Below are positions 3,604-46,364 of a stretch of 64,000 nucleotides of DNA, piece after piece. The stretch is from positions 161,619 to 225,618 of the forward strand of contig JAFTCA010000010.1 in NCBI GenBank assembly GCA_017454945.1. The letters are read 5' to 3'. The notes under the pieces are model-generated. The model had not been told where the DNA came from, did no database searches, and saw only the letters and a program-made list of their open reading frames with translations. Made by a program: the position numbers and the translations under genes. Position 1 is the stretch's first letter. Each line of letters begins with the position of its first letter. Source of the stretch: Bacteroidales bacterium. Lineage in GTDB: Bacteria; Bacteroidota; Bacteroidia; Bacteroidales; WCHB1-69.

Positions 3604-3780
3604 GACTCCTTTCTACTTTAAGTTTGTATTCTATTTATTTTGAAAATTTTAGGGGTGCAAAAATACATTTTTTTTTGATACGCACAAACCCCTCTGCATT
3701 TTTTTCTTTTAATCAAATAGTACTAATGCGATATTTTTATTGTTTTAGGTTCATATTATATACGATTTTTTTGGTAACCA

Positions 3781-3788
3781 TATACTTG
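3781..3788 (+). promoter_or_regulatory. -7-like box TATACTTG for large ncRNA copy A
   Basis: Lies 2 nt upstream of the conserved 5' GGCAC. Copy B has the equivalent TATACATG at the same spacing. Confidence 0.5.
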
Positions 3789-3790
3789 AT

Positions 3791-4187
3791 GGCACAAAGT
3801 GTTTCGGGAACAAAACCTTTTAGTCTTGTCGATTCGCATTGTTGCACGAGTGTCTCTTTCGCGGCGATTAAGCATGTTGTTTCATATCGCATCCTCCCCG
3901 CGCCGCGAGGAGCGCACATGCCTTCCACCGCCCCACACAGCGCGCTACCGCGCTTGTGTGGAGTTATTGATAGGGTATCCCTACGGGATACTTCCACATA
4001 TGCCATGCGCATTTTTAAACCTCGTAGAGGTTCCCTCCCAATAACCCCAGATGAGCGTAGCGTAATCTGGGGTAGCGAGAAACATCATGATACTCACCGC
4101 GGCGCGCTATGAATGTTTTATGGAACACCAAACTTGGTCGCCGCGGAAGGGACTCAGTGCCAACAAGTATATAGTTCCCTTTTTTTT
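3791..4187 (+). ncRNA. Unassigned large structured RNA, copy A (~397 nt)
   Basis: Paralogous to 41776-42164. Long-range helices are 3791-3795/4157-4161, 3857-3867/4138-4148 and 3899-3907/4098-4106. Hairpins lie at 3933-3961, 3975-3991, 4018-4032 and 4045-4072. The 3' terminator is GGGACT...AGTTCCC plus T8. The ORFs here are short and not conserved between the copies. Confidence 0.75.
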
Positions 4188-4243
4188 ACTATTTTTGTCT
4201 CCTATAAAAGATAAACTCTTAACATTATTTATATCTGATAATT

Positions 4244-14987: not shown

Positions 14988-15117
14988 CCGCACGAAAAAG
15001 GACGGTGGACAAATTTGTAATGATTGCAACCACTTTAAAAAATGCTAAACCATTTCAAGTTTTCCCCTGCACCTTTCGTTAAACACCTAATTATCAACAA
15101 TAAAACTTTATTGTACT

Positions 15118-16401
15118 ATGAGTTATTTATTCACATCTGAATCAGTTTCGGAAGGTCATCCCGACAAAGTCAGCGACCAAATTTCTGACGGTTTACTTGA
15201 TGCTTTTCTGGCTCAGGACCCTGAGTCGAAGGTGGCTTGCGAGACTTTGGTGACTACAGGACTGGTAGTGTGCGCTGGGGAGGTCAACACCCACGGTTTT
15301 GTATCCATTGACGATGTTGCCCGAAAGATTATCACCAGGATCGGATATACCAAAAGCGACTATCAGTTTGATGCCAAGTCGTGCGCCGTCATTTCGTCTA
15401 TACACAACCAATCGTCGGACATCAACCAAGGGGTGGTGCGCCAAACTGCCGAGGAGCAGGGTGCCGGCGACCAGGGCATGATGTTCGGCTATGCATGCAA
15501 GGAGATGGACAACTTCATGCCCATCACTATTGAAATTGCCCACATCATTCTGCAAGAACTGGCGGCCATCCGCCGTGAAGGCAAGGTGATGACCTATCTG
15601 CGCCCTGATGCCAAGTCGCAGGTAACACTGCAATACTCTGATGACGGCAAGCCCGAACGTATTGACGCTTTGGTGGTTTCGACACAGCACGACGATTTTG
15701 ATGAAGAAGGCAAGATGCTGGCCAAAATCAAGGAAGACGTGCGCAACATTCTGTTGCCGAGAGTAATAGCACAATGCCCCGACAAGGTGAAGGTGCTTTT
15801 CAACTCCGACTTTAAGTTGCATGTCAACCCGACAGGCAAGTTTGTCATTGGCGGACCGCACGGCGACACGGGGCTCACGGGCCGCAAAATCATCGTGGAC
15901 ACCTACGGTGGCAAGGGAGCCCACGGCGGTGGCGCCTTCTCGGGCAAAGATCCGTCGAAGGTGGACCGCTCGGCGGCTTACGCTGCACGCCACATTGCCA
16001 AGAACATGGTGGCTGCCGGCCTTTGCGACGAGGTTCTGGTGCAAGTGGCTTACGCCATCGGCGTAGCCGAGCCTGTTGGCCTCTATGTCAACACCTACGG
16101 CACTGCCAAGGTGAACATGAGCGACGGCGAGATTGCCAAACGCATTTCCACCATTTTCGATATGCGTCCTTACGCCATCATCAAGCGGTTCAACCTCAAG
16201 AACCCTATCTACGAACCGACGGCATCGTATGGTCACTTTGGCCGCGACTGCTACGAAAAGGAAGTGGAAGTGTTCTATCAGGATGAAAACACCCGCACTG
16301 TCAATGAAAACGGCAAGGAGCGCCACTTCAAGAAAGTGACTTTCTTTGGCTGGGAAAAACTGGATTATGTAGATAAGATTAAAGAAAAATTTGGGTTGTA
16401 A
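15118..16401 (+). CDS. metK: S-adenosylmethionine synthetase
   Basis: [24 protein letters not shown]..., [21 protein letters not shown]. Confidence 0.98.
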
Positions 16402-40691: not shown

Positions 40692-40898
40692 ATGATGACA
40701 TTATTATTTATGGGAACCACCGAAATTATCATCATCGCCGTAGTCATTATTCTGCTTTTCGGCGCTAAAAAAATTCCCGAACTGATGAAGAGTTTAGGCA
40801 AAGGAGTGAAGAGCTTCAAAGACGGCATGAACGACACCGAACAGCCGAAGAACGACGAACCCAAGAAAGAAGATTCCACTTCTGACAATGCCCAATAG
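40692..40898 (+). CDS. tatA: Twin-arginine translocase subunit TatA/E
   Basis: ...EIIIIAVVIILLFGAKKIPELMKSLGKGVKSFKDG... The start may be the ATG at 40710. Confidence 0.9.
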   Translation: MMTLLFMGTTEIIIIAVVIILLFGAKKIPELMKSLGKGVKSFKDGMNDTEQPKNDEPKKEDSTSDNAQ

Positions 40899-41661
40899 CG
40901 AACATACGCAAACATTCTGGGACCATCTGGACGAACTCAGGTCGTGCCTGATACGCATGATTGTGGCCGTACTGGTGTGCGGCATCGTTGCGTTTTGCTT
41001 TAAAGACCTGCTGTTCAAGATTATACTTGCCCCTAAAGAGGCTTCGTTTGTCACCTTCAAACTTATTGAGCGACTCACGGGGCAGGCGTCCGATTTCTCG
41101 CTTACGCTCATCAACATCGACCTGGCGCAACAGTTCATCATCCACTTGAAAGTGGCCTTTTACTTCGGACTGCTGTGTGTCAGTCCCTACCTGCTGTACG
41201 AGCTGTTCAAGTTTGTGGCGCCCGCGCTCTACACGAGCGAGCGGAAATATGCTGTCACTGCGCTGGTTGGCGGCTGCGTGATGTTTTTTGCGGGCGTGCT
41301 GCTCAACTATTTCATCATCTACCCTGTGACGGTCCGTTTTCTCGGCAGTTATCAGGTCAGTGCTGCGGTGCCGAACATCATCTCGCTCGAATCGTACATC
41401 AGTGCGCTGCTGATGCTCAGTCTCACCTTGGGCATTCTATTTGAAATTCCCATATTATGCTGGCTTTTGGCCAAATTCGGTCTGCTGACCGAGGCGCCCA
41501 TGAAAAAGTACCGCCGCCATGCCATTGTGGTTATTCTCATTGTGGCTGCCATCATCACCCCCACCGCCGACGCTTTCACCCTCACCATCGTGGCGCTGCC
41601 CATCTATCTTTTGTATGAGTTGAGCATCGTCATAGTGAAAAAGACAAGTAAGGCAACGTAA
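40888..41661 (+). CDS. tatC: Twin-arginine translocase subunit TatC
   Basis: FWDHLDELRSCLIR... and a six-TM pattern. Confidence 0.9.
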   Translation: MPNSEHTQTFWDHLDELRSCLIRMIVAVLVCGIVAFCFKDLLFKIILAPKEASFVTFKLIERLTGQASDFSLTLINIDLAQQFIIHLKVAFYFGLLCVSPYLLYELFKFVAPALYTSERKYAVTALVGGCVMFFAGVLLNYFIIYPVTVRFLGSYQVSAAVPNIISLESYISALLMLSLTLGILFEIPILCWLLAKFGLLTEAPMKKYRRHAIVVILIVAAIITPTADAFTLTIVALPIYLLYELSIVIVKKTSKAT

Positions 41662-41765
41662 GGATTGATTATAAGTTCAACTTGGAAAGTTATAAAAGAG
41701 GAGTTACAGAACCCCTGCAAATTAATGCGACAAACTTTTTTTAATTCCATTAATATTGGTAACTA

Positions 41766-41773
41766 TATACATG
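41766..41773 (+). promoter_or_regulatory. -7-like box TATACATG for large ncRNA copy B
   Basis: Same 2-nt spacing to the conserved GGCAC as in copy A. Confidence 0.5.
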
Positions 41774-41775
41774 AC

Positions 41776-42164
41776 GGCACAAAGTGTTTAGTAAACAATC
41801 TCTTTTAGTCTTGCCGATTCGCATTGTTGCAAGAGTGTCACTTTCGCGGCGAATAAACGACCGCATCATTGCACACATCTACCGCGCCGCGAGTAGGCTT
41901 GCGAATTTTCCATGTGTTCCCCACACTGACGTGTGGGGTTATTGATAGGGTGTCCCTACGGGACACTTTCACATGTGGTCATGCGCACATCTTTTCGACC
42001 TCGTAGAGGTCGTCTGTCAGTAACCCCAGATGAGCGTAGCGTAATCTGGGGTATGCGAAAGCCGCTCATACTCACCGCGGTGCGCTATGAAAGTTCAACG
42101 GAGCAATCAACTTGTTCGCCGCGGAAGGGATTCAGTGCCAACAGGAAAACAATCCCCCTTTTTT
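41776..42164 (+). ncRNA. Unassigned large structured RNA, copy B (~389 nt)
   Basis: Colinear with 3791-4187. Shares an identical 33-mer (42021-42053 = 4042-4074). Hairpins at 41919-41938, 41950-41966 and 41997-42011 carry compensatory changes. The terminator is GGGATT...AATCCC plus a T-run. Confidence 0.75.
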
Positions 42165-42349: not shown

Positions 42350-42745
42350 ATGGAAAAAATTAAGTCATTAGCGGATTTGAAAAAGAGAAGAGAAGCTCTT
42401 CAATCCGATTTGAATTTGCGCGAAATGGGCGACAACGCCGAGAAGGTGATCCAAGTGAAGGTTGCCATGGCTACTTGCGGTATTGCTTCAGGTGCCAAGA
42501 AGACTATGGAAGCCATTATCGACGAATGCCAAAAGAACAACGTAGCCGCCGTGGTAACCCAAACCGGTTGCATGGGCTACTGCTATGCCGAACCGACCGT
42601 AGAGGTGAAGAAACCAGGCGCTGACCCTGTTGTTTTCGGATACCTGACCGCCGACAAAGCTGCCGACCTGGTGAAGAAATACCTCATCGGCAACGAGTTA
42701 TTGGAAGGCATCATTCCTGTCAACTATGAGAAAATTGATAAATAA
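42350..42745 (+). CDS. Thioredoxin-like [2Fe-2S] ferredoxin-domain protein
   Basis: 131 aa with the Cys pattern ...ATCGIASG... and ...GCMGYCYAEP... Confidence 0.7.
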   Translation: MEKIKSLADLKKRREALQSDLNLREMGDNAEKVIQVKVAMATCGIASGAKKTMEAIIDECQKNNVAAVVTQTGCMGYCYAEPTVEVKKPGADPVVFGYLTADKAADLVKKYLIGNELLEGIIPVNYEKIDK

Positions 42746-42764
42746 CATTTTAAAATAGACAATA

Positions 42765-44558
42765 ATGGCAAATTACAAATACCATATCTTGATATGCGGC
42801 GGTACGGGATGCCATGCTTCTCAAAGTGCGCTTATCAAAGAGAATTTTGAAAAACTGTTAAAGGAAAACAACCTTGAAAACGATGTTCAGGTTATCGGCA
42901 CCGGCTGCTTTGGCTTCTGCGAAAAAGGCCCCATCGTTAAAATCCTCCCTGATAACACCTTCTACACACAGGTTAAACCCGAAGACGCTGAAGAGATTAT
43001 CAAGGAACACATCATCAAAGGTAGAAAAGTAAACCGCTTGTTATACTTGGATCCCAAGACGCAAGAGCACAAAGATGACTCGAAGCACATGGGCTTCTAC
43101 AAGAAACAGCTGCGTATCGCTTTGCGTAACTGCGGTTTCATCAACCCTGAAAACATTGACGAGTACATCGCCCGCGACGGTTACAAAGCTTTGGCTACCG
43201 TTTTGGAAAAGAACGACCCCGAATGGACCATCGACGTAATCAAGAAGTCGGGTCTGCGCGGTCGTGGCGGCGCCGGCTTCCCCACAGGTTTGAAATGGGA
43301 ACTCTGCCGCAAGAACCAAGCTGATCAGAAATACATGATCTGCAACGCCGACGAAGGTGACCCCGGTGCATTTATGGACCGTTCCATCCTCGAAGGTGAC
43401 CCCAACACCTTGATTGAAGCTATGACCATCGGTGGTTTCTGTATTGGCGCCACCAAGGGTTTGGTTTACATCCGTGCCGAATATCCTCTGGCTATCCACC
43501 GTTTGCAAGTGGCCATCGGCCAAGCTCGCGAATATGGCTTGCTGGGTAAGGACATCCTCGGTTCGGGTTTCGACTTTGACATCGAACTGAGATACGGAGC
43601 AGGTGCTTTCGTATGCGGTGAGGAAACCGCCCTCATCCACTCGATGGAAGGTCTGCGTGGCGAACCTACCTTCAAACCGCCGTTCCCGGCCGTTGAAGGT
43701 TACTTGAAGAAACCCTCAAACGTAAACAACGTTGAGACTTTCGCCAACATCCCCGTTATCATCAACAAGGGTTGGGAATGGTTCTCATCCATCGGAACTG
43801 AGAAATCAAAAGGTACCAAGGTATTCGCTTTGGCCGGCCAGATCAACAACGTAGGTCTGATCGAAGTTCCTATGGGTATCACCCTTCGTGAAGTTATTTA
43901 CGAAATCGGTGGCGGCATCAAGAATGGTAAGAAATTCAAAGCCGTTCAAACTGGTGGTCCTTCTGGTGGCTGCTTGACCGAGAAATTCCTCGATACTCCT
44001 ATTGATTACGAAAACCTGATTGCTGCCGGTTCTATGATGGGCTCGGGTGGTATGATCGTTATGGACGAAACCTCATGTATGGTATCCGTAGCTAAGTTCT
44101 ACCTCGACTTCACCGTTGAAGAATCCTGCGGTAAATGCTCTCCCTGCCGTATCGGTAACAAGAGACTCCACGAGATTCTCACCAAAATCACCGACGGTAA
44201 CGGTACTATGCAAGATTTGGACGAGTTGCGTAATCTTGCCCACGTTATTAAAGACTCTGCTCTTTGCGGCCTTGGACAAACTTCTCCCAACCCGGTATTG
44301 TCAACCATCGACAACTTCTGGGATGAGTATGTTGCTCACGTAACCGAGAAGAAATGTCCTGCTGGCCAATGCAAGGCTCTGAAGCAGTACATCATCGATC
44401 CTGACAAGTGTAAAGGTTGTACGGCTTGCGCACGCAATTGCCCCGTTAACGCTATCTCGGGCACCGTTAAGAACCCGCACACTATCGATCAGTCGGCTTG
44501 TATCAAATGCGGTACTTGCTACGAAAAATGTAAGTTTAACGCAATTAGTATTAAATAA
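42765..44558 (+). CDS. hydB: NuoF-like flavoprotein subunit of the [FeFe]-hydrogenase (HydB)
   Basis: N-terminal 2Fe-2S thioredoxin-like domain, GRGGAGFPTGLKW FMN/NADH site, SLBB region, and C-terminal 2x[4Fe-4S] (CKGCTACARNCP, CIKCGTCYEKC). Confidence 0.9.
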   Translation: MANYKYHILICGGTGCHASQSALIKENFEKLLKENNLENDVQVIGTGCFGFCEKGPIVKILPDNTFYTQVKPEDAEEIIKEHIIKGRKVNRLLYLDPKTQEHKDDSKHMGFYKKQLRIALRNCGFINPENIDEYIARDGYKALATVLEKNDPEWTIDVIKKSGLRGRGGAGFPTGLKWELCRKNQADQKYMICNADEGDPGAFMDRSILEGDPNTLIEAMTIGGFCIGATKGLVYIRAEYPLAIHRLQVAIGQAREYGLLGKDILGSGFDFDIELRYGAGAFVCGEETALIHSMEGLRGEPTFKPPFPAVEGYLKKPSNVNNVETFANIPVIINKGWEWFSSIGTEKSKGTKVFALAGQINNVGLIEVPMGITLREVIYEIGGGIKNGKKFKAVQTGGPSGGCLTEKFLDTPIDYENLIAAGSMMGSGGMIVMDETSCMVSVAKFYLDFTVEESCGKCSPCRIGNKRLHEILTKITDGNGTMQDLDELRNLAHVIKDSALCGLGQTSPNPVLSTIDNFWDEYVAHVTEKKCPAGQCKALKQYIIDPDKCKGCTACARNCPVNAISGTVKNPHTIDQSACIKCGTCYEKCKFNAISIK

Positions 44559-44573
44559 TAAAGCATAGAATCA

Positions 44574-46364
44574 ATGGATACAGTAAAATTAACAATAGAT
44601 AACAGAGAAGTAGAAGTTCCGAAAGGGACTACCATTCTTAAAGCCGCACAGAGCATGGGCATCGATATCCCCACGCTGTGCCATTTTGAGCTGGAAGGTC
44701 TGGACATTCATAACAGACCCGGTGGCTGCCGTATTTGCGTTGTAGAAGTTGAAAAGCGCAGAAACCTGGCTCCCGCCTGCGTTACCGAATGTATGGAAGG
44801 TATGGTTGTAAAGACCAACTCTATCCGCGCCATCAACGCTCGTAAAACCGTTCTCGAGCTGATCCTCAGCGACCACCCCGCCGATTGCTTGCAATGCGCT
44901 AAGAACGGCCGTTGCGAACTGCAGGACCTCGCCGCACGTTTCGGCATCCGCGAGAACCCCTATATGGGTGGAAACCACGTTCAATCGCAATACCAAGTGG
45001 AAGTTTCTCCTTCCATCATCCGCGATATGAACAAGTGCGTTATGTGCCGTCGTTGCGAGACCATGTGCAACGAGCTGCAGACCGTAGGTGCCCTGTCAGC
45101 TATTGAAAGAGGTTTCCCCGCAGTGGTATCCACCGCTTTCAACCAGCATCTCGACCACTCACCTTGTACCTTCTGCGGCCAGTGCGTAGCCGTTTGCCCC
45201 GTTGGTGCTCTGACCGAGGTTGACCATACCTCCAAGATCATCCGCGCCATCGCCGATCCTACCAAGAAGACCGTCGTACAAGTGGCTCCCGCCGTTCGTG
45301 TTGCCCTCGGCGAAGAGTTCGGCATGGAACCCGGCACCATCGTTACTGGCAAGCTGACCGCCGCATTGAAGGCCCTCGGCTTCGACTATGTATTCGATAC
45401 CGACTGGAGCGCCGACTTGACCATCATGGAAGAGGGTACCGAGCTGATCGGCCGTCTGACCAGATACCTCAACGGCGACAAGGATGTGGCTCTGCCTATC
45501 CTGACCTCCTGCTGCCCCGCTTGGGTTAACTTCTTCGAACATCAGTTCCCCGAAATGAGAGCGCTGCCTTCAACGGCCAAGTCGCCTCAACAGATGTTCG
45601 GCGCCATCGCCAAATCTTACTTTGCAGAAAAGATCAACTGCAAACGCGAAGATATGGTCAGCGTATCAGTAATGCCCTGTTTGGCAAAGAAATACGAATG
45701 CAGCCGTGACGAGTTCAAGGTAAACGGCAATCCGGATGTTGACTACTCCATCTCAACCCGTGAGTTGGCCCGCCTGATTAAGCTCGCTAACATCGACTTC
45801 GCTTCGCTGCCCGAAGCTGAATTCGACAGCCCGCTCGGCGAATCTACCGGTGCTGGCGTCATCTTCGGAACCACCGGTGGTGTTATCGAAGCTGCCGTTC
45901 GTACCGCTTACGAAGTTATCACCAAGAAACCTCTTCCGAAGATCGACTTCGAAGAACTGCGCGGTCTGGAAGGCGTACGTTCAGCCACCATCGATGTGGA
46001 CGGTTTGAAACTGAACATCGGTATCGCCCACGGTTTGCGCAATGCCCGCAAGCTTCTTGAAGACATCAAGGCTGGTAAATGCCAATTCCACGCCATCGAG
46101 ATCATGGCATGCCCCGGCGGTTGTATCGACGGTGCAGGTCAGCCTCTCCACCATGGCAACAGCGACATCATCAAAGCTCGTTGGGAAGCCATCTACCGTG
46201 CTGACAAGGAAATGCCTATCCGTAAATCTCACGAAAACCCGTCAATCCAAGCTATCTACAAAGAATACCTTGGCGAACCCTGCGGTCACAAGTCTCACGA
46301 ACTGCTTCACACGCACTACTTCGACAGACAAACTACCGTGGAAGTTGATGTGGATAAAAAGTAA
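44574..46364 (+). CDS. hydA: [FeFe]-hydrogenase catalytic subunit (HydA)
   Basis: All three H-cluster motifs are intact: TSCCPAWV, VMPCLAKKYE and EIMACPGGCIDGAGQP. N-terminal 2Fe-2S and 4Fe-4S domains are present. Confidence 0.93.
   Translation: MDTVKLTIDNREVEVPKGTTILKAAQSMGIDIPTLCHFELEGLDIHNRPGGCRICVVEVEKRRNLAPACVTECMEGMVVKTNSIRAINARKTVLELILSDHPADCLQCAKNGRCELQDLAARFGIRENPYMGGNHVQSQYQVEVSPSIIRDMNKCVMCRRCETMCNELQTVGALSAIERGFPAVVSTAFNQHLDHSPCTFCGQCVAVCPVGALTEVDHTSKIIRAIADPTKKTVVQVAPAVRVALGEEFGMEPGTIVTGKLTAALKALGFDYVFDTDWSADLTIMEEGTELIGRLTRYLNGDKDVALPILTSCCPAWVNFFEHQFPEMRALPSTAKSPQQMFGAIAKSYFAEKINCKREDMVSVSVMPCLAKKYECSRDEFKVNGNPDVDYSISTRELARLIKLANIDFASLPEAEFDSPLGESTGAGVIFGTTGGVIEAAVRTAYEVITKKPLPKIDFEELRGLEGVRSATIDVDGLKLNIGIAHGLRNARKLLEDIKAGKCQFHAIEIMACPGGCIDGAGQPLHHGNSDIIKARWEAIYRADKEMPIRKSHENPSIQAIYKEYLGEPCGHKSHELLHTHYFDRQTTVEVDVDKK

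Follow-up and report, generated by a model that had tools for sequence, protein, structure and literature searches.

Results

Two copies of an intergenic element in the window

We analysed a stretch of 64,000 nucleotides from a Bacteroidales bacterium (contig JAFTCA010000010.1; hereafter the window), which contains two copies, A and B, of an element of about 400 nt. Copy B (~41757-42158) lies between tatC (40888-41661), located upstream, and a downstream NuoE/NuoF/[FeFe]-hydrogenase (HydABC-like) operon (42350-46364), and copy A (~3772-4178) lies between infC, on the minus strand, and a DUF4838 gene. An earlier interpretation made from the letters alone, called here the sequence-only reading, took each copy for one large RNA held together by long-range helices and correctly placed copy B between tatC and the HydABC operon. 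In a pairwise alignment the two copies are colinear over ~400 nt with a mean column identity of 85%, and the identical blocks listed by that reading alternate, as it described, with blocks in which A and B show no similarity. The 33-mer TAACCCCAGATGAGCGTAGCGTAATCTGGGGTA is exact in both copies (42021-42053 in B and 4042-4074 in A), and its 28-nt core occurs exactly twice in the 64-kb window, compared with zero occurrences expected. A scan of the window for transfer RNA (tRNA) and transfer-messenger RNA genes found none.

Differences between the copies that fall within local hairpins are compensatory, as had been claimed. At 41950-41966, GTATCCC-TAC-GGGATAC in copy A becomes GTGTCCC-TAC-GGGACAC in copy B; at 41997-42011, AACCTC-GTA-GAGGTT becomes GACCTC-GTA-GAGGTC; and the last hairpin changes from GGGACT/AGTTCCC to GGGATT/AATCCC. 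The hairpin at 3933-3961 of copy A differs in length from its counterpart CCCCACACTGACGTGTGGGG (41919-41938) in copy B, and both are hairpins. The two copies fold considerably better than shuffled sequences (z = -6.4 and -8.9), and so does the minus strand of copy B (z = -5.2).

Each element is an inverted pair of modules

The architecture of the element was resolved with a covariance model (R1) built from the 3' modules of 42 homologues only. R1 matches the 3' halves of the window copies at 131-134 bits, and it also matches their 5' halves on the minus strand (E ~1e-14), a match that is likewise seen in the homologous loci L089, L096 and L100 and in homologue subfamily R1. Because one model fits the 3' half on the plus strand and the 5' half on the minus strand, each ~400-nt element is an inverted doublet, that is, two diverged copies of one ~155-nt module arranged head to head. 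The arms are 59-63% identical, compared with 49 +/- 1.7 for shuffles, and the modules are separated by a spacer of 11 nt in copy A and 15 nt in copy B, while in subfamily R1 they overlap by 7 nt. The outermost 23 nt also mirror one another, forming terminal inverted repeats that match at ~19/23 positions. This inverted symmetry explains why the triloops are UAC in the left arm and GUA in the right arm, why both strands fold strongly, and why the element contains four mutually complementary CGCGG segments. A regular-expression scan of the window for more solitary units was unspecific (~90 matches in shuffles), with only the four known units standing out.

Copy B begins with the left terminal inverted repeat GGTAACTATATACATGACGGCAC (41757-41780), to which the reverse complement of the right end aligns and which is conserved in A, B, L089 and L100. 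It is followed by an extra segment of ~45 nt, AAAGTGTTT...CTTTTAGTCTTG...GCATTGTTGCA (41781-41825), that lies outside the module match. This segment is present at 3796-3840 in copy A, has no counterpart in the right arm, and is conserved in the window-like (W) and rumen R1 subfamilies of homologues. The left module of copy B occupies 41826-41973 on the minus strand (R1 66.5 bits, E = 2.6e-14). Read on the plus strand, it consists of hairpin-c' (41843-41851 / 41885-41893), hairpin-b' (41919-41938), the linker GTTATTGATAGG and hairpin-a' (41950-41966), and a local hairpin within it covaries in an alignment of 12 sequences. The central spacer, the gap between the two R1 matches, spans 41974-41988. 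The right module, on the plus strand at 41989-42142 (R1 131.2 bits, E = 1.3e-29), contains hairpin-a (41997-42011), a linker with an invariant TAAC at its end (42021-42024), hairpin-b (42024-42051) with the loop GAGCGTAGCGTA, a variable hairpin (~42052-42072) and hairpin-c (42075-42082 / 42117-42124). The right terminal inverted repeat GTGCCAACAGGAAAACAATCCCCC (42135-42158) mirrors the left end and is directly followed by a T-run (42159-42164). In copy A, the inverted left module is found at 3841-3998 on the minus strand (R1 69.6 bits, E = 4.8e-15) and the right module at 4010-4164 on the plus strand (R1 134.4 bits, E = 2.2e-30), within a whole element that, including both terminal inverted repeats, spans 3772-4178.

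This layout bears on several features that the sequence-only reading had assigned to an RNA gene. The sequence that it took for a promoter is the right end in reverse complement. For its terminator, the compensatory change of the stem from GGGACT to GGGATT holds, but the loop is 18 nt long and the hairpin is not called by a terminator scan; the promoter and terminator scan was of the sigma-70 type and is uninformative for Bacteroidetes promoters. The variable blocks, which had been suggested to be guide-like, are terminal loops plus one variable stem of each arm.

Covariation supports local hairpins and not long-range helices

The four complementary segments (seg1 to seg4) can be paired in two ways, and we compared a local model (seg1:seg2 plus seg3:seg4) with a long-range model (seg1:seg4 plus seg2:seg3) in an alignment (A5) of 12 sequences from the two subfamilies that share the whole element. 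Under the local model, 97.5% of cells are paired, with three compensatory pairs (nine cells), and the covariation score is 0.186, compared with 0.109 after shuffling, a value that none of 500 shuffles reached. Under the long-range model, 87.9% of cells are paired, which equals the shuffles (414 of 500 reach the observed value). In the same 12 sequences, the long-range helices show no compensatory change, their covariation score is 0.080 versus 0.081 shuffled, and variable positions break their pairs. The long-range helices are thus a by-product of palindromic symmetry, and the idea of one large RNA held together by them is not supported. The long-range helix in which a C-to-U change had been read as a tolerated G-U pair is better interpreted as the local hairpin-c.

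Across the 42 homologous modules, RNAalifold supports three local helices, with double changes in 11 of 25 pairs, and compensatory changes occur in all three of hairpin-a, hairpin-b and hairpin-c. The compensation seen between A and B thus persists in a larger set of homologues, showing that the stems are under selection for pairing. It follows that the element is neither a decaying repeat nor a gene remnant, in agreement with the sequence-only reading. The module stems contain 7 G-U cells and 7 A-C cells in the 42 homologues and, because these are equally frequent, neither strand is favoured. In hairpin-b of the left arm of copy A, a U-G pair on the minus strand corresponds to a C-A mismatch on the plus strand.

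Homologues share a 3' module and occupy unrelated intergenic sites

Scanning one genome per species with the 18-mer GATGAGCGTAGCGTAATC returned 78 loci (numbered with the prefix L). Seventeen of these are true homologues from six rumen Bacteroidales species represented by metagenome-assembled genomes (MAGs), in which each genome has 2-4 of them and one contig carries three. Some 60 of the 78 loci are canonical GTAG-tagged hairpins of repetitive extragenic palindromic (REP) sequences from Proteobacteria, Binatia and Nitrospirales, which have only the hairpin in common with the element. The core 18-mer had no match in viral contigs, which argues that the element is not a phage RNA. A looser pattern applied to metagenomes yielded 31 further true homologues, among them L089, L096 and L100, which are closely related to the window copies, and a short variant with two hairpins (L103/L111).

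We also observed that the top and loop of hairpin-b, GATGAGCGTAGCGTAATC, are identical to a variant of the canonical GTAG-tagged REP hairpins (GTAGGnCGGATGAGCGTAGCGTAATCCGnC), which is often present several times per genome (L002, L004-L030 and others). Both kinds of hairpin are linked to Y1/HUH enzymes, and the identity could reflect a shared recognition determinant or a coincidence; an estimated ~17 chance matches to an 18-mer are expected in the searched collection.

All homologues have in common a 3' module of ~155 nt, composed of hairpin-a, a linker ending in TAAC, hairpin-b (which contains the 33-mer), a variable hairpin and a long hairpin-c closed by CCGCGGYG / CRCCGCGG. Their 5' halves vary between subfamilies. 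In L091, the unit forms a tandem array with a period of ~84 nt that is closed by an inverted unit, a BIME-like mosaic (BIME, bacterial interspersed mosaic element). Right beside this array, at 4120-4200 on the minus strand of L091, lies a tRNA-like sequence, recognized by eye only, that could mark a preferred insertion neighbourhood.

All modules are intergenic, and the neighbours of full modules are unrelated to one another (AAA_14/DUF4143, DUF1015, M14 peptidase, YkuD, Band_7, ATP-grasp, HTH/nitroreductase, GidA, PorP, PglZ and Fic). Near-identical elements of the window type likewise occur in unrelated contexts, between YkuD_2 and Band_7 genes and after a Fib_succ_major gene. Among the loci examined, we found no conserved protein partner next to the modules and no TnpB or IscB gene adjoining modules or Y1 transposase genes. 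AAA_14/DUF4143 ATPase genes repeatedly adjoin full modules (L056 1376-3626, L115 12274-14526, L040 320-1810 and L088 98-1588), and in L056 and L115 the gene sits between two near-identical direct module copies 2.1 kb apart, an arrangement that might reflect recent duplication or a unit resembling a cassette.

Both copies are absent from orthologous sites of close relatives

Intergenic regions orthologous to those of copies A and B lack the element in related genomes. For copy B, empty sites are found in L118/L119 and L122/L123 (TatC 89% and 87% identical, respectively), where the tatC-hyd intergenic region measures 252 and 140 nt compared with 689 nt in the window. These loci keep tatA-tatC, a gene for a 131-aa protein, hydB and the conserved hyd promoter region. 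L121 (TatC 98% identical) is also without the element, but the gene downstream of tatC differs there. R1 run with filters off gave no match in any of the loci of the copy B relatives. The site of copy A is empty in L130, L131 and L132 (DUF4838 85%, 89% and 73% identical), and the whole element is missing from the infC/DUF4838 intergenic region of relatives; L130 retains the infC and DUF4838 arrangement. The element has therefore been gained or lost between close relatives, and the hyd operon does not have it as a conserved leader.

All three empty sites carry the T-run that follows copy A on its right, indicating that this run is pre-existing flanking sequence and not part of the element. The flanks of the empty sites are too divergent to place the insertion junctions, or any target-site duplications, exactly. 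Copy A has T-runs on both sides, and copy B has AATATT on one side and CTTTTTT on the other, which are not duplicates.

The core unit flanks Y1 transposase genes

In L103, the short module matches flank an open reading frame (ORF) of 149 aa that is identified as Y1_Tnp (Pfam E = 2.7e-22). The protein scores 64.1 bits with the NCBIfam model transpos_IS200 (cut-off 55) and 20.1 bits with REP_Tyr_transpos (cut-off 80), the model for RAYTs (tyrosine transposases associated with REPs). A forward unit (UUGUCCGAAGGACAA, AAAUCUGCAUAAC, CGCGGAUAAGCGAAGCGCAAUCCGUGG) lies upstream of the Y1 gene; an inverted unit follows immediately downstream, and then two more forward units. A 57%-identical Y1 homologue in L086/L093 has the same arrangement of units and lies 1.3 kb from a full module. 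The protein family comprises 657 close homologues of 149 aa, named IS200/IS605 transposase (NCBI) or RayT (JGI). Four further Y1 loci, chosen without reference to repeats, are all flanked by units (L124 from Bacteroidales, L126 and L127 from Prevotellaceae, and L128 from Prolixibacteraceae). In the six Y1 loci tested (L103, L086, L124, L126, L127 and L128), none of which was in the training set of R1, the model detects an inverted unit just downstream of the gene in 6/6 and a forward unit just upstream in 5/6, and eight control loci give no match. The Y1 genes appear to be single-copy and are found in varied housekeeping contexts.

The core unit consists of hairpin-a, with an R-N-A or GAAA-type loop, a linker of ~12 nt ending in the invariant TAAC, and hairpin-b. 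In an alignment of 25 units drawn from Y1 flanks, window arms and other loci, TAAC forms the only invariant columns; it is located at the foot of hairpin-b in 25/25 aligned units and in 42/42 modules. The hairpin-b loop of L126, GAGCGUAGCGUU, is one base from the window loop, and GTAGG is seen beside one inverted unit only, in L103. The flanked Y1 proteins carry the Y motif YIKNQKEHH and the HUH motif N/DH[IVL]H. On the basis of its Y motif, the enzyme is assigned to TnpA_Y1 subclass 1.2, described as a low-copy group of Bacteroidetes and Cyanobacteria that has no REPs and as a rule lacks terminal structures of the IS200 type (Quentin et al. 2018, PMC6006769). The same study describes Acidobacteria class 3 Y1 genes with hundreds of atypical hairpin repeats.

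Other features of the window

Two further features of the window lie apart from the element. A SAM-II (long-loop) riboswitch at 14999-15058 (+; 52.7 bits, gathering score 44) is directly upstream of an S-adenosylmethionine synthetase gene (15118-16401) and is the one match to Rfam that the window gives at gathering thresholds. At ~100-1930 on the plus strand, a run of short ORFs in shifting frames has a coding-like G+C content of 0.45-0.55 and no Pfam match; this chain may represent a gene that is frameshifted or disrupted, or an ORF that leaves the window at its left end.

Discussion

A mobile palindromic repeat is the probable identity of copies A and B

Taken together, the two-module palindromic anatomy, covariation that is confined to local hairpins, absence from orthologous sites and the association of the core unit with Y1 genes indicate that copies A and B are probably REPIN/BIME-like non-autonomous repeat elements of Bacteroidales (REPIN, REP doublet forming hairpin), with hairpins recognised by a trans-acting Y1/HUH enzyme. 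By analogy with the TnpA proteins of IS200/IS605 and with REP-associated transposases, the predicted Y1 enzyme, the gene for which would reside elsewhere in the host genome, would recognise folded hairpins in single-stranded DNA. TAAC, where hairpin-b has its foot, would act as the GTAG or TTAC tetranucleotide does in those systems, and the enzyme would copy or move doublets in trans. Because it is the folded single strand that is proposed to be recognised, selection for recognition would keep the stems by compensatory change while the loops and one variable stem drift. Like REPs, the elements may in addition be transcribed and may influence the mRNAs of adjacent genes through 3'-end formation or stability.

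Several observations weigh against this interpretation. The 64-kb window contains no Y1 gene. The likeness of Y1-flanking units to the window modules (20-49 bits) is confined to the first ~65-90 nt; hairpin-c and the variable hairpin are extra. Copy number appears low, with two elements (four modules) per 64 kb and 2-4 exact-core matches per MAG plus weaker ones, counts that come from genomes none of which is complete. Certain subfamilies keep the same syntenic position from one MAG to another, a pattern that a host function would fit as well, and no REPs have been reported for subclass 1.2 (Quentin et al. 2018, PMC6006769). The role of the Y1 enzyme is itself a prediction.

Among known systems, the closest likeness is to REP/BIME sequences, such as those of E. 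coli, with their RAYT enzymes (REPtrons) and to REPINs. As in these, hairpin repeats are intergenic and their stems are kept by compensatory change; a small, single HUH/Y1 gene has repeats inverted around it (six related-genome loci); inverted doublets are dispersed and mosaic arrays combine differing unit types; and presence varies between close relatives with no clear target-site duplication. The unit described here differs in having two hairpins and a conserved linker ending in TAAC, whereas a REP is one hairpin with a 5' GT[AG]G. It is also larger, with modules of ~155 nt and doublets of 330-400 bp compared with ~25-40 nt for REPs and ~100 bp for REPINs. A REPIN similarly comprises two inverted units and a short spacer, but here each arm measures ~155 nt and identity between the two is only ~60%. 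Apparent copy number is low, in contrast to the hundreds typical of REPs, and the enzyme scores as IS200-type and not as a member of the RAYT clade of REPtrons. It resembles subclass 1.2 in its length of 149 aa, the YIKNQKEHH and HUH motifs, its occurrence in Bacteroidetes and its low copy number; however, the published description of the subclass (PMC6006769) lists no REP, whereas here the two-hairpin unit flanks 6/6 loci.

IS200/IS605 elements and their gene-less derivatives (palindrome-associated transposable elements, PATEs) share with our case a Y1 HUH transposase that does not require terminal inverted repeats or target duplications, as well as subterminal hairpins and a conserved tetranucleotide near the hairpin foot. 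In IS608 this tetranucleotide is TTAC. Their end hairpins are on the same strand, though, while the modules and the Y1-flanking units described here are on opposite strands, and there is no tnpB here. Integron attC sites were considered and rejected by eye, as the R''/R' consensus (RYYYAAC/GTTRRRY) is not matched.

At gathering thresholds, Rfam contains no family for the element in the window or in the 17 homologue loci. A permissive scan of copy B gave a sub-threshold match to Acido-Lenti-1 (RF01687) at 41919-41965 (29.6 bits, E = 1e-4, gathering score 37). This family likewise has two hairpins, a loop of the CUGACG type and an A/U-rich linker, and it matches the plus strand of the left arm of copy B. 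On the other hand, the match is below the gathering score, covers only 47 nt, is in the reverse-complement orientation of the unit and is not found in copy A. In view of the hairpin repeats described for class 3 Y1 genes of Acidobacteria, Acido-Lenti-1 may itself be a REP-like DNA repeat rather than a small RNA. The large RNAs GOLLD, ROOL, OLE and raiA resemble the element in being hundreds of nt long, in their many hairpins, in having conserved 3' and variable 5' parts, and in their occurrence in rumen metagenomes. The element differs from them in that it is palindromic and two-stranded, has no supported long-range helices and no Rfam match, and shows mobile behaviour as well as an association with a Y1 transposase. 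Literature searches for a described large RNA or MITE (miniature transposable element with inverted repeats) of such a kind in Bacteroidales returned nothing specific.

Alternative explanations

We weighed four other explanations against these data. The sequence-only reading amounts to a stand-alone structured non-coding RNA of ~390 nt with its own plus-strand promoter, an end formed by GGGAYT...ARYCCC and a T-run, and variable guide-like segments. Such an RNA, which would be new given that Rfam has no entry for it, agrees with the strong folding (z = -6.4 and -8.9), the clear covariation of stems, the loop motifs that are invariant across species, the T-run after the last hairpin in both A and B, and the synteny of some subfamilies across MAGs. 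However, the minus strand folds nearly as well, and the module stands in reverse complement in the 5' half, so that a plus-strand RNA would carry one sense and one antisense copy. The long-range helices lack covariation, G-U and A-C cells are equal in number, and hairpin-b in the left arm of copy A pairs as U-G on the minus strand while leaving a C-A mismatch on the plus strand. Its proposed signals fare no better: what was taken for a promoter is a mirror image of the right end, the terminator lacks conservation in L096 and is missing from the calls of the terminator scan, and the T-run of copy A is pre-existing flank. Orthologous sites in relatives lack the element altogether, and we regard a large RNA as unlikely. 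A cis-regulatory leader of the HydABC operon, namely a riboswitch or attenuator in which the competing seg1:seg2/seg3:seg4 and seg1:seg4/seg2:seg3 pairings decide termination, is hardly credible. Copy B is indeed directly upstream of the operon, the four mutually complementary CGCGG-rich segments permit two folds, and there is overlap between the 3' segment and the last hairpin's 5' arm; but in close relatives the hyd operon and its promoter region are present and the element is not, copy A and other members of the family adjoin unrelated genes, and the alternative fold is an inverted-repeat by-product that shows no covariation.

A classical MITE, in which a DDE transposase recognises terminal inverted repeats of ~23 bp and generates target-site duplications, would fit the ~19/23 matching positions of the ends, the T-runs on both sides of copy A and the presence/absence polymorphism. 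We nevertheless find it improbable, considering that no consistent target-site duplication is seen (the flanks of copy B are AATATT and CTTTTTT), that selection on internal hairpins is not expected of such an element, that no DDE transposase with these ends was seen among the loci examined, and that the core unit is associated with Y1/HUH genes instead. The sequence-only reading had named a mobile MITE with flanking duplications as the opposing possibility; mobility is borne out in substance by the absence of both copies at the orthologous sites of relatives and by the core units around Y1 genes, but the element is probably not a MITE that makes target-site duplications. An omega RNA or guide-like scaffold that remains on an IS200/IS605 derivative devoid of genes and serves a TnpB-, IscB- or TldR-type protein in trans is very improbable. 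The link to IS200/IS605-type Y1 genes and the conserved, structured ~155-nt module with variable loops are consistent with it. Nevertheless, neither TnpB nor IscB is found next to any module or Y1 gene examined, the element has no match to omega-RNA-type families in Rfam, the sequence beyond the module is conserved within subfamilies and is not target-like, and modules come as inverted pairs.

Implications

The kind of element to which we assign copies A and B, a REP/BIME/REPIN with a Y1 enzyme, is already known. What appears to be undescribed in the literature searched is the two-hairpin TAAC unit, the 155-nt modules and their ~400-bp doublets, and the link to subclass 1.2 in Bacteroidales. 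A bolder proposal, to which we give little weight, is that the two-hairpin/TAAC unit is the missing cognate repeat of the 'orphan' TnpA_Y1 subclass 1.2 or, more novel still, that the extra, well conserved part of the module is domesticated cargo. As cargo, the variable hairpin and hairpin-c, with its CCGAAGCAC-type loop, would be a functional structured domain of RNA or single-stranded DNA in which the variable loops are specificity determinants, and a mobile hairpin handle would carry a functional nucleic-acid module.

For RNA discovery in Bacteroidales and rumen metagenomes, the element is a caution, as its conserved compensatory helices come from palindromic repeat hairpins. Where such elements insert beside operons, hydABC being one example, transcription or mRNA stability may change. 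A REP/RAYT-like partnership for subclass 1.2, which is widespread in Bacteroidetes, would provide this family with a cognate repeat and make its function testable. The known range of REPIN/BIME-type elements could extend to much larger, two-hairpin, modular units in a major phylum of the gut and rumen.

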